Positions 10,115 through 19,692 of a DNA stretch of 64,000 bases are shown in pieces. The translations under genes were made by a program, and so were the position numbers. A model generated the notes under the pieces. That model saw nothing but the letters and a program-made list of their open reading frames with translations, searched no databases and was not told the origin of the DNA. Every line of letters begins with the position of its first letter. Position 1 is the stretch's first letter. The DNA is from Escherichia coli. Lineage in GTDB: Bacteria; Pseudomonadota; Gammaproteobacteria; Enterobacterales; Enterobacteriaceae. The stretch is from assembly GCF_024502345.1 (NCBI RefSeq), contig NZ_JALDNN010000001.1, one strand, 5' to 3'.

Positions 10115-10475
<361 letters not shown>

Positions 10476-16890: not shown

Positions 16891-17664
16891 ATGTCCGAGA
16901 ATAAATTAAACGTTATCGATTTGCACAAACGCTACGGCGAACACGAAGTGCTGAAAGGGGTCTCACTACAAGCGAATGCCGGAGATGTAATAAGCATCAT
17001 CGGATCGTCGGGCTCGGGAAAAAGTACCTTTCTGCGCTGCATTAACTTCCTCGAAAAACCGAGCGAAGGATCGATCGTGGTCAATGGCCAGACGATCAAT
17101 CTGGTGCGCGACAAAGACGGTCAACTCAAAGTCGCCGATAAAAATCAACTGCGCTTACTGCGCACACGCCTGACGATGGTATTCCAGCACTTCAATCTCT
17201 GGAGCCATATGACGGTGCTGGAAAACGTCATGGAAGCGCCGATTCAGGTGTTGGGCCTGAGCAAGCAGGAAGCGCGCGAGCGGGCGGTGAAGTATCTGGC
17301 AAAAGTCGGGATAGACGAACGTGCACAGGGGAAATATCCGGTGCATCTTTCCGGCGGTCAGCAACAGCGTGTTTCTATCGCGCGGGCGCTGGCGATGGAA
17401 CCGGAAGTTTTACTGTTTGATGAACCTACCTCGGCGCTCGATCCTGAACTGGTAGGCGAAGTGCTGCGCATTATGCAGCAGCTGGCGGAAGAGGGAAAAA
17501 CCATGGTGGTAGTGACTCACGAAATGGGCTTTGCTCGTCATGTTTCTACTCACGTCATTTTCCTCCATCAGGGGAAAATAGAGGAAGAAGGCGCGCCGGA
17601 GCAGTTATTTGGCAACCCGCAAAGCCCTCGTCTGCAACAGTTCCTTAAAGGTTCGCTGAAATAA
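16891..17664 (+). CDS. hisP: histidine/LAO ABC transporter ATP-binding protein
   Basis: 257-aa ORF; Walker [13 protein letters not shown] signature LSGGQQQR, Walker [12 protein letters not shown]. Confidence 0.95.
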
Positions 17665-17670
17665 TTGCCT

Positions 17671-17700
17671 CTCCGGTGGCTAACGCCGCCGGAGTATTTT
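17671..17700 (+). terminator. rho-independent terminator after hisP
   Basis: Stem ctccggtggc/gccgccggag followed by tatttt. Confidence 0.6.
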
Positions 17701-17860
17701 CAAGGGGAATTTGCGAGTCAGCTTCCGCTGAAATGTAAAAGTTGCAGTCCGCTAAAAATAGTTCTGAATTCGCTGTCCAAAGATAAAAACTGCCTGCTGC
17801 ATTGGGTGTTAATCGTGGTTATTGTCGCGTCATCTTAAATTTGAGGGGTGACGGAACGCC

Positions 17861-18751
17861 ATGACAATATCGACAACTTCCACGCCGCATGATGCGGTAT
17901 TTAAATCTTTTTTACGCCATCCAGACACCGCGCGGGATTTTATTGATATTCATCTTCCCGCGCCGCTGCGCAAACTGTGTGATTTAACGACGCTTAAACT
18001 GGAACCAAACAGTTTTATTGATGACGACCTGCGGCAATATTATTCCGACCTCTTGTGGTCTGTGAAAACGCAGGAGGGAGTGGGTTATATTTATGTAGTG
18101 ATAGAGCACCAAAGTAAGCCGGAAGAATTAATGGCTTTTCGCATGATGCGTTATTCCATTGCGGCAATGCAAAACCATCTTGATGCGGGCTATAAAGAGC
18201 TTCCATTGGTGATCCCGATGCTGTTTTATCATGGTTGCAGAAGTCCTTATCCTTATTCACTCTGCTGGCTTGATGAATTTGCCGAGCCTGCTATAGCCCG
18301 CAAAATATATTCATCAGCGTTTCCGTTGGTGGATATTACCGTGGTGCCGGATGACGAGATTATGCAACACCGCAAAATGGCGCTGTTGGAGTTAATTCAG
18401 AAACATATTCGTCAGCGCGATCTGTTGGGATTAGTCGACCAAATTGTTTCGCTGCTAGTTACAGGGAACACTAATGACAGACAGCTAAAAGCCCTGTTTA
18501 ATTACGTATTACAAACAGGGGATGCCCAGCGTTTTCGTGCATTTATTGGTGAGATAGCGGAACGCGCACCACAAGAAAAGGAGAAACTGATGACCATTGC
18601 TGACAGATTACGTGAAGAAGGCGCAATGCAGGGCAAACACGAAGAAGCCCTGCGTATTGCTCAGGAGATGCTGGATAGAGGTTTAGACAGAGAGTTAGTT
18701 ATGATGGTGACCCGACTTTCACCAGACGATCTTATCGCGCAAAGCCACTAA
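17861..18751 (+). CDS. rpnB: recombination-promoting nuclease RpnB (YhgA-like, PD-(D/E)XK family)
   Basis: 296-aa ORF; N-terminal FKSFL/HDAVFK YhgA-like signature; sits between hisP and yfcH as K-12 yfcI does. Confidence 0.8.
18590..18751 (+). CDS. candidate nested small protein: in-frame internal start in the rpnB 3' end (53 aa, identical to the RpnB C-terminal tail)
   Basis: Internal ATG at 18590 preceded by AAGGAG (18578-18583) with a 6-nt spacer; no expression evidence is available from sequence. Confidence 0.35.
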
Positions 18752-18798
18752 TCCTGTAACACCGGGAGTTAACTGGCGGATGTTTGCTGTAAACCACA

Positions 18799-19692
18799 TC
18801 AGCGAACGACATCCGCCAGCGCCTCTTCTAAATCGTACCAGCGAAACGCAAAACCCGCTTCTTCCAGCCGTTTAGGCAGCGCGCGTTGTCCACCTAATAC
18901 CAGTACTGAAGATTCGCCCATTAACAGTCGAATGGCGGTCGCGGGGACGCGCAAAATGGCCGGGCGATGCAGCGCATGACCGAGCGCATGGGCAAATTGT
19001 TCATTGCGTACCGGGTAGGGCGAAACCATATTAAATGGCCCGCGCAGCTCGTTATCCAGCAGCCAGAGAATACCGTTGACCATATCATCAATATGAATCC
19101 AGGCCAGATACTGCCGACCAGAGCCAATCGGCCCGCCCAGGCCAAGACGAAACGGCGGCAGCATTTTACCGAGAATACCGCCATCCGGTGCCAGCACTAC
19201 ACCGGTACGCAGCAGGCACACTCGCGTTTTGTCACTTTGCGCCCGGCAGGCAATTTCTTCCCAGCGGGCGCAGAGTTTATGGGTAAATTCGTTATGCGGC
19301 GGTTCCTCTTCGGTAACCACCACTTCACCTAAGTCGCCATAATAGCCCGTTGCCGAGCCGGAAATGAGTACCGACGGTGGCGTGTCGCTGGCATTAATCA
19401 AATCGACCAGTTTTTGCGTGATATTCCAGCGGCTTTGGCAGAGACGCTCTTTTTGCTCGTGAGTCCAGCGTTTATCAGCAATCGGTTCTCCGGCCAGGTT
19501 GATTACCGCATCAACGCCGTTGAGGTTGCTTTGATCGGCAAGCCCTTGCCATAGTGTCACCCGAGGGCCGAGAACGGAACTGGCTTTCTGCGGGTTACGC
19601 GTCACTACCGTGATTTGATGGCCCAACTCCAGCAAACGCGGGATTAAATGGCGACCAATTAATCCTGTCCCTCCGGTGATCACTATATTCAT
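18799..19692 (-). CDS. yfcH: epimerase-family protein (NAD(P)-binding Rossmann fold)
   Basis: 297-aa ORF; N-terminal GGTGLIG. Confidence 0.85.

Follow-up and report, generated by a model that had tools for sequence, protein, structure and literature searches.

The rpnB gene of Escherichia coli almost certainly contains a gene within a gene, rpnB-S, in which the antitoxin RpnB-S is made inside the toxin gene. In the window, by which we mean the whole 64,000-nucleotide stretch of DNA analysed here, one reading frame would give two products, namely RpnB-L (296 aa, starting at 17861) and RpnB-S (53 aa, starting at 18590). The site is the already published start of RpnB-S, and picking it out is a correct rediscovery, not a new finding. 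The sequence-only reading that preceded this work had placed an AAGGAG hexamer at 18578-18583, a gap of 6 nt and an in-frame ATG at 18590, at codon 244, and all these coordinates are correct; translation from 18590 also matches the sequence that it quoted for a 53-aa product equal to the C-terminal tail of RpnB. Moreover, nothing in the sequence runs counter to the reading of an internal start for rpnB-S. The elements of the gene and of the internal start are the following:

17861-18751, plus strand: rpnB (yfcI), encoding RpnB-L, a 296-aa PD-(D/E)XK nuclease toxin, named recombination-promoting nuclease RpnB in RefSeq
17882-18487, plus strand: nuclease domain, residues 8-209, Pfam PF04754 (Transposase_31/YhgA-like), E = 6.5e-91 over the full model length
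18578-18583, plus strand: Shine-Dalgarno (SD) sequence AAGGAG of rpnB-S, overlapping the K240-E241 codons of RpnB-L and followed by the spacer AAACTG at 18584-18589
18590-18592, plus strand: internal start (iTIS) ATG, in frame with rpnB, codon 244 of 296, M244 of RpnB-L and M1 of RpnB-S, invariant across homologues
18590-18751, plus strand: nested coding sequence rpnB-S, 53 codons from the ATG to the stop, almost certainly the 53-aa antitoxin, with the same sequence as the C-terminal tail of RpnB-L

As far as can be judged from its residues, the toxin RpnB-L looks intact. With 187 bits it clears the cut-off of 52 set for the Rpn family model NCBIfam TIGR01784. Kingston et al. (PMC5350276) mutated a set of residues in RpnA, and RpnB has every one of them, namely D11, D63, E82, Q84, R94 and the P163-D164-D165-E166 stretch, with the catalytic residues intact. 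The tail of RpnB gave no Pfam match; in particular DUF4351/PF14261, the family named for stand-alone RpnS genes (PMC10400941), was not matched.

Identity with K-12 rpnB and the published small protein

Compared with rpnB of K-12 MG1655 (b2305), the gene in the window shows four nucleotide differences, at 18025, 18212, 18316 and 18319, which alter two residues of the nuclease domain (D55E and I118L). From 18320 to the stop codon the two sequences are identical; within this part lie the small ORF in full, its SD and ATG, and the candidate internal promoter. The gene and the locus, hisP-rpnB-yfcH, are also the same, so that the window and K-12 share SD, ATG and all 53 residues of RpnB-S, while the two nuclease-domain differences set RpnB-L of the window apart, and the experiments of Zhong et al. 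described next were performed on K-12.

Zhong et al. (PNAS 2023, PMC10400941) reported that each of the five rpn genes, rpnB included, gives a profiling signal at its iTIS, and Ribo-RET and Onc112 signals at the internal start of rpnB are reported in their Figure 2C and in the preprint 10.1101/520783. In the same study, chromosomal SPA tags placed before each stop codon revealed the small proteins, RpnB-S among them, and the mutation of iTIS and RBS led to the loss of the small protein. The nested small protein proposed by the sequence-only reading has thus been published for K-12 rpnB, with both a profiling signal and a chromosomal tag (PMC10400941). Its statement that Rpn nucleases are toxic and restrained by such proteins also agrees with the K-12 data, since RpnB-L*, in which both iTIS and RBS are mutated, inhibits growth more strongly than RpnB-LS, and RpnB-S supplied in trans lowers the SOS induction that depends on RpnB-LS (PMC10400941). 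RpnA-S does not have this effect, and RpnB-S loses it when D29 is replaced by a stop codon (PMC10400941). Experiments on K-12, whose sequence is identical here, have therefore shown that translation starts internally, that the small protein exists, that toxicity is higher without RpnB-S and that SOS is specifically suppressed. The earlier caveat that the sequence cannot show how rpnB behaves at this locus is largely lifted, because the gene shows no difference from K-12 beyond 18319, and the tests that had been proposed are mostly published for that same sequence.

The numbering used in the D29 experiment is compatible with 18590 alone among the internal starts: residue 29 is Asp when counted from the Met at 18590 and Thr when counted from the next in-frame Met, at 18626. 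The other in-frame ATGs of the tail were also weighed by their pairing with the anti-SD and rejected, the one at 18626 (M256) reaching -4.8 kcal/mol and those at 18668, 18701 and 18704 between -1.9 and -3.1 kcal/mol.

Short transcript, tail fold and proposed mechanism

A Cappable-seq study in strain EDL933, in which rpnB was used as a test case, located an internal transcription start site (TSS) 650 bp into the gene; the read score of this internal TSS (iTSS) exceeded that of the gene TSS, and by RT-qPCR the short transcript was more abundant than the long one (PMC10469882). This agrees with the dRNA-seq TSSs cited for the inside of all rpn genes and with short transcripts more abundant than full-length mRNA (PMC10400941). 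Mapped onto the window, the transcript features are:

17785, plus strand: TSS of the long rpnB mRNA, from EDL933 (PMC10469882)
18511 (A), plus strand: iTSS of the short rpnB-S transcript, from EDL933 (PMC10469882)
18474-18502, plus strand: candidate internal promoter, ATGACA-17 nt-TTTAAT, weak, noted by eye, 8 nt upstream of the mapped iTSS

The short mRNA would have a leader of about 79 nt, from A18511 to the ATG at 18590. In the predicted fold of the short transcript (18511-18800), SD and ATG have an unpaired probability of 0.72-0.73, against a transcript mean of 0.46. No promoter ahead of the internal start came up when 17600-18900 was scanned for the sigma-70 consensus; the scan skipped TTTAAT because the second position of this -10 element is T and not A. 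From its position, ATGACA-17-TTTAAT might drive the rpnB-S transcript, an attribution that we hold weakly.

As for the fold of the small protein, the RpnA-S crystal structure 7TH0 has a 49-aa chain, of which residues 1-48 can be aligned with residues 244-295 of RpnB (E = 0.0025), residue 1 corresponding to residue 244. An AlphaFold2 model of RpnB-S, computed from an alignment of nine tails including RpnA-S and with no templates, shows three helices, at 3-29, 34-41 and 45-49, with a pLDDT of 82. The best PDB match of this model in Foldseek is again 7TH0 (probability 1.00, TM 0.69/0.78, rmsd 2.3 Å), and the next match has E > 1. RpnB-S is thus predicted to resemble RpnA-S, folding into a compact bundle of three helices, the first of them long. 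Matches of the tail to pentatricopeptide-repeat entries of the PDB were discarded, being weak per repeat (per-domain E from about 1 to 600), with totals inflated by the summing of identical designer repeats.

Two stretches of the small ORF differ among alleles:

18623-18634, plus strand: 12-nt (4-aa) length polymorphism in helix 1 of RpnB-S, from allele comparison
18676-18707, plus strand: allelic mosaic patch covering the end of helix 1, the turn and helix 2 of RpnB-S, from the comparison with EDL933

Alleles with a 57-aa RpnB-S read REEG-RNDG-LILG-KREE and have one extra 4-aa unit relative to the 53-aa version of the window. They were found in 55989, MRSN352231, ST2747, AF14 and loci L005-L007, which belong to E. 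coli and other Escherichia. The extra unit lies 12-15 residues after the Met, inside the published range, according to which the within-species variation of 4-aa units begins 8-20 residues after the initiating Met (PMC10400941). Among the IMG/VR homologues the tails vary from 53 to 103 aa and differ by multiples of 4 aa. The patch amounts to 18 nucleotide differences within 32 nt relative to EDL933, with identical flanks; the EDL933 version, EKGFDHEVILTL, replaces the 12-residue version of the window, and the same patch occurs in an APEC strain. Taken together, the alternative alleles, which carry the patch, the additional 4-aa unit or both, account for a large share of the E. coli population. 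A gene conversion event was considered for the patch, and no donor was found among K-12 rpnA, rpnC, rpnD, rpnE and ypaA or among the IMG/VR homologues.

The mechanism that is best supported is the published one, as follows. The long mRNA, from about 17785, would be translated into RpnB-L, a PD-(D/E)XK DNA endonuclease that, if unrestrained, would damage the host chromosome and induce SOS. RpnB-S would probably come mostly from the shorter and more abundant mRNA that begins at about 18511, from an internal promoter, and possibly from the long mRNA too. Being the toxin's own C-terminal oligomerisation domain, RpnB-S would pair via its long first helix, and its binding would keep its own RpnL inactive, so that it may be regarded as a dominant-negative antitoxin. 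The specificity for the cognate partner would arise from the length of the first helix, which varies in 4-aa steps. For RpnA, complex formation, the inhibition of DNA cleavage in vitro and the crystal structure of RpnA-S are published, and for RpnC it has been reported that the number of 4-aa repeats sets the toxin-antitoxin specificity (PMC10400941); a commentary by Koonin summarises the Rpn model (PMC10400984). It is from these two paralogues that we infer the physical mechanism for RpnB, taking complex, nuclease inhibition and structure from RpnA and repeat specificity from RpnC.

A real RpnB-S could also have a different main job, for instance as an HTH-like protein that regulates the transcription of rpnB, or by sensing a phage factor or serving as its decoy, and its antitoxin activity would then be an effect of overexpression. 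In fact, HHpred relates RpnS to HTH motifs, it has been suggested that some Rpn proteins may be housekeeping, and the suppression by RpnB-S was tested with overexpressed proteins only (PMC10400941); moreover, the mosaic patch in helix 2 is not on the helix used for dimerisation and could face another partner. Against this, the iTIS mutation in cis, where the small protein is not overexpressed, raises the toxicity of RpnB, the suppression is both paralogue-specific and dependent on the protein, and a direct complex and the inhibition of cleavage in vitro are published for RpnA. We therefore consider a main role other than that of antitoxin very unlikely, and the phenotype of the iTIS mutant in cis can be explained without it.

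Conservation of the start signal

In a single sequence, a strong SD followed by an ATG is only suggestive, because one or two such pairs can be expected by chance in 64 kb. We used as proxy genes the 54 long ORFs of the window, which contain 426 internal in-frame ATGs. Among these, the ATG at 18590 ranks first, with the strongest pairing to the anti-SD of the 16S rRNA (-8.7 kcal/mol), and a near-consensus hexamer at -15 to -5 precedes just 2 of the 426, 18590 included; the second one is probably the true start of its own gene. A strong SD-like motif, AGGAGG at 18072-18077, is also present inside rpnB, and it is not followed by a usable start codon. The GTG at 18080 was rejected as a start, since a mere 2 nt separate it from this motif, which is not kept in the paralogues.

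The significance of the site comes instead from the conservation of SD and ATG, and in the homologues examined the start signal is conserved as nucleotides and not as amino acids, with the GGAG core, the spacing and the ATG all kept. In the alignment, codon 240 is AAG in rpnB, rpnA and rpnE, GGG in rpnC, AGG in rpnD and GGA in an Erwinia homologue. Residue 240 hence varies between K, G and R, and yet the codon always gives a G-rich SD core. Codon 241 is GAG in all six sequences (rpnA to rpnE and the Erwinia homologue) and never GAA; in the same six, the GAG is followed by six variable bases and then by the ATG. The SD falls in the linker that joins the nuclease domain to the tail, a region of poor conservation.

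Every sampled Escherichia allele has an identical SD and ATG. A scan of genome contigs gave only Escherichia orthologues, the single Erwinia homologue and one 380-bp contig that resembles a contaminant, and IMG/VR was used for a wider view of conservation beyond Escherichia and Erwinia. Here, 33 loci with RpnB homologues were available, at 44-62% identity. A motif search picked out 18 non-identical full-length homologues (44-55% identity) for the calculation of SD energies; at the aligned ATG these average -9.3 kcal/mol, with 16 of the 18 at -8.0 kcal/mol or stronger. As a control, 250 other internal ATGs of the same 18 genes average -0.9 kcal/mol, and 1.6% of them reach -7.4 kcal/mol. The motif search had missed four further IMG/VR loci, two of which (L040 and L042) were examined, the other two being their identical duplicates; both keep the start site, as M-N-I-A, with an SD energy of -11.4 kcal/mol.

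The same data bear on two readings in which no second protein is made. Internal SD-like sequences in E. coli have been proposed to make ribosomes pause by pairing with the anti-SD, although the idea is contested. According to such a proposal, the SD inside rpnB would slow the ribosomes between the two domains and help RpnB-L to fold co-translationally, with no initiation, and the position of the motif in the linker between the domains is in keeping with it. A pause would leave unexplained the invariant ATG placed at 6 nt, the internal TSS upstream, the peaks obtained with initiation inhibitors and the separate protein. We thus give this reading hardly any credit; pausing could be at most an additional effect. 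The last alternative, that AAGGAG simply serves Lys-Glu 240-241 and Met244 is structural, with no separate protein, draws on the chance occurrence of SD-like hexamers in coding sequence, as AGGAGG at 18072-18077 exemplifies, and on the chance frequency of SD and ATG pairs given above, but it is practically untenable in view of the GG always supplied by codon 240 for varying residues, the invariable GAG at codon 241, the fixed spacing of the ATG, the same pattern in 18 distant homologues and a chromosomally tagged RpnB-S that is lost in iTIS/RBS mutants (PMC10400941).

Related systems and the rpnB locus

An RpnB-S translated from within rpnB has a close counterpart in RpnA-S/RpnA-L, which has the same architecture and in which the SD AAGGAG and the ATG fall in the same alignment column, M244. 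The two tails share 47% identity, helix 1 of RpnB-S is longer by 4 residues, and in the published tests neither small protein protects against the toxin of the other (PMC10400941); furthermore, it is RpnA for which the complex and its inhibition of cleavage in vitro have been demonstrated. Outside the family, McrB-S in mcrB and Cas11d in cas10d also arise from an in-frame internal start, and the shorter product modulates the full-length protein, although these families are unrelated to Rpn. Cas11d (cited in PMC10400941) complements its partner and does not inhibit it. In the RefSeq record of K-12, mcrB-S is a separate CDS, whereas rpnB-S has none. In type II toxin-antitoxin systems a protein antitoxin binds the toxin directly and, as with RpnS, the antitoxin is small, helical and in excess. 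By contrast, the type II antitoxin is encoded by an adjacent separate gene, while RpnS is the C-terminal domain of the toxin itself, and therefore toxin and antitoxin are forced to co-evolve. It has also been suggested that RpnS is released and not degraded (PMC10400941).

The Rpn systems have established that a toxin gene can hold its own antitoxin as an in-frame nested gene, and that standard annotation misses such genes. The present site was picked out from the sequence alone, which shows that nested regulators can be sought by such a signature, a conserved SD with an in-frame ATG close to the 3' end of the host gene.

With regard to phage defence, which the sequence-only reading had named as a suggested role, protection within the Rpn family has been published only for the plasmid-borne RpnP2-LS of ECOR13, which has the family and the gene-within-gene layout in common with RpnB (PMC10400941). 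A reduction of plaquing, by T-even phages and BASEL #40, has been shown for RpnP2 alone, whereas RpnB is chromosomal and lies among housekeeping genes. In the window the neighbourhood is hisM-hisP-rpnB-yfcH-folX, with housekeeping genes (hisJQMP, yfcH, folX) and no defence island, and no model of PADLOC-DB v2 matches RpnB-L or RpnB-S. Rpn homologues are common on enterobacterial plasmids, as 4845 plasmid records match RpnB by tblastn, mostly at less than 60% identity. A role of RpnB itself in phage defence is a hypothesis. One could go further and regard the chromosomal RpnB-LS as a working abortive-infection system in which the patch is a second, hitherto undescribed specificity determinant, beyond the number of 4-aa repeats; we find this doubtful. 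If it were true, the patch could be a surface diversified by recombination and in contact with the nuclease domain, or with a trigger or inhibitor from a phage, and it could define incompatible toxin-antitoxin allele classes within one species.

The presence of the gene is itself variable. About 680 of 5426 complete E. coli genomes (some 12.5%) have no rpnB, and any defence role must therefore be dispensable. In S21EC, one of the strains without the gene, a relic of about 30 nt, corresponding to rpnB 18305-18334, persists between hisP and yfcH; therefore the absence, at least in this strain, results from a deletion and not from an ancestral empty site. Together with the allelic patch in helix 2 of RpnB-S, the deletions at the level of the locus and the alternative 3' junctions are possibly new. 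In the strains without rpnB the right-hand junction of the deletion is at 18773, and one further feature was recognised in this region:

18773-18819, no strand assigned: 11-bp inverted repeat, CTGGCGGATGT and ACATCCGCCAG, with a 25-nt loop, between the convergent genes rpnB and yfcH

Judged by its form and place, the inverted repeat is possibly a terminator, and a terminator-like site detected by a scan on the minus strand partly overlaps it.

Allelic patch in the RpnB-S coding sequence

The comparison of the window with EDL933 revealed a sharply bounded allelic difference within the RpnB-S coding sequence: the 32 nt at 18676-18707 hold 18 nucleotide differences, and the flanks are identical. 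At the protein level, 12 residues of the window are replaced by EKGFDHEVILTL in EDL933, over a stretch that runs from the last part of helix 1 through the turn into helix 2 of RpnB-S. The same type of patch was also found in an APEC strain. Tail identities of 90-95% to the window occurred in about 2041 of 4755 genomes, a band that mixes the EDL933-type patch and the +12-nt allele (one extra 4-aa unit in helix 1). The patch looks like a recombination mosaic and differs in kind from the published 4-aa repeat variation; no donor for the EDL933-type version was found among the K-12 paralogues or the IMG/VR homologues.

Loss and rearrangement of rpnB

The rpnB gene is missing from about 680 of the 5426 complete E. 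coli genomes. Individual strains show the loss and rearrangement of the locus, and the deletion junction of one of them lies at the following element:

18773-18819, in the rpnB-yfcH interval (convergent genes): perfect inverted repeat with 11-bp arms (CTGGCGGATGT / ACATCCGCCAG) and a 25-nt loop

This repeat overlaps the stop codon of yfcH and might terminate transcription in both directions, although the + strand has no T-run after it. In S21EC (L019), the comparison of the hisP-yfcH spacer with 17770-18773 of the window showed that a relic of about 30 nt, corresponding to rpnB 18305-18334, is retained, and therefore rpnB was lost there by deletion. The right-hand junction coincides with the first nucleotide, 18773, of the hairpin 3' of rpnB. 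In ST2747 (L016), a deletion joins the rpnB tail (after ...EMLERG) to a truncated 3' end of yfcH, and destroys helices 2-3 in RpnB-L and RpnB-S alike. In the AF14 isolate (L020) the final 8 residues of the RpnB tail differ (SPEELLNQKQ) and the downstream gene, replacing yfcH, encodes a trans-sulfuration enzyme, which together place a breakpoint within the rpnB tail.

Internal control, fold resemblance and database records

A second Shine-Dalgarno-like sequence inside the gene served as an internal control:

18072-18077, within the rpnB nuclease domain: consensus AGGAGG

The sole in-frame start close by is a GTG at 18080, at a spacing of 2 nt, and the hexamer is not kept in the rpnB paralogues. 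This shows that SD-like hexamers by themselves can arise by chance.

RpnB residues 253-287 (about 18617-18721), carrying the RpnS core GK.EEAL.IA.EML..G.D.E.V, matched the designer pentatricopeptide-repeat consensus in the PDB, with summed profile E-values down to 1e-38. The individual repeat matches were weak, and the resemblance probably reflects a generic helix-turn-helix hairpin rather than homology.

In the K-12 record NC_000913.3 (L001, L012), mcrB-S has its own RefSeq CDS inside mcrB; the same annotation holds no CDS for rpnB-S or other RpnS proteins, despite their experimental detection, which is an annotation gap. A 380-bp contig of coverage 0.9 in a Novosphingobium sp. BW1 assembly (L009) encodes residues 199-296 of the RpnB tail with 100% protein identity to E. 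coli; this contig almost certainly entered the assembly as E. coli contamination.

Other features of the window

10168-10420, + strand: Rfam naRNA4 (RF02564), matched three times in tandem at a spacing of about 91 nt; 73-80 bits, gathering score 59.5
41185-41227: match to the nuoG RNA motif of Rfam (RF01748); 50 bits, gathering score 33
53702-54670, + strand: ORF beyond the end of K-12 collinearity
54696-55412, - strand: 238-aa ORF beyond the same end

The naRNA4 family is a known one and comprises nucleoid-associated RNAs derived from repeats, and the nuoG motif is expected, given its location in the nuo operon. The window is collinear with K-12 up to about 52.9 kb, on the yfbL/yfbK side, where identity drops to 81%. 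By its sequence, the first ORF beyond this point presumably resembles an IS903-group transposase. In the second, an internal AAGGAG is followed by an ATG at 55325/55328, which is probably the true start.
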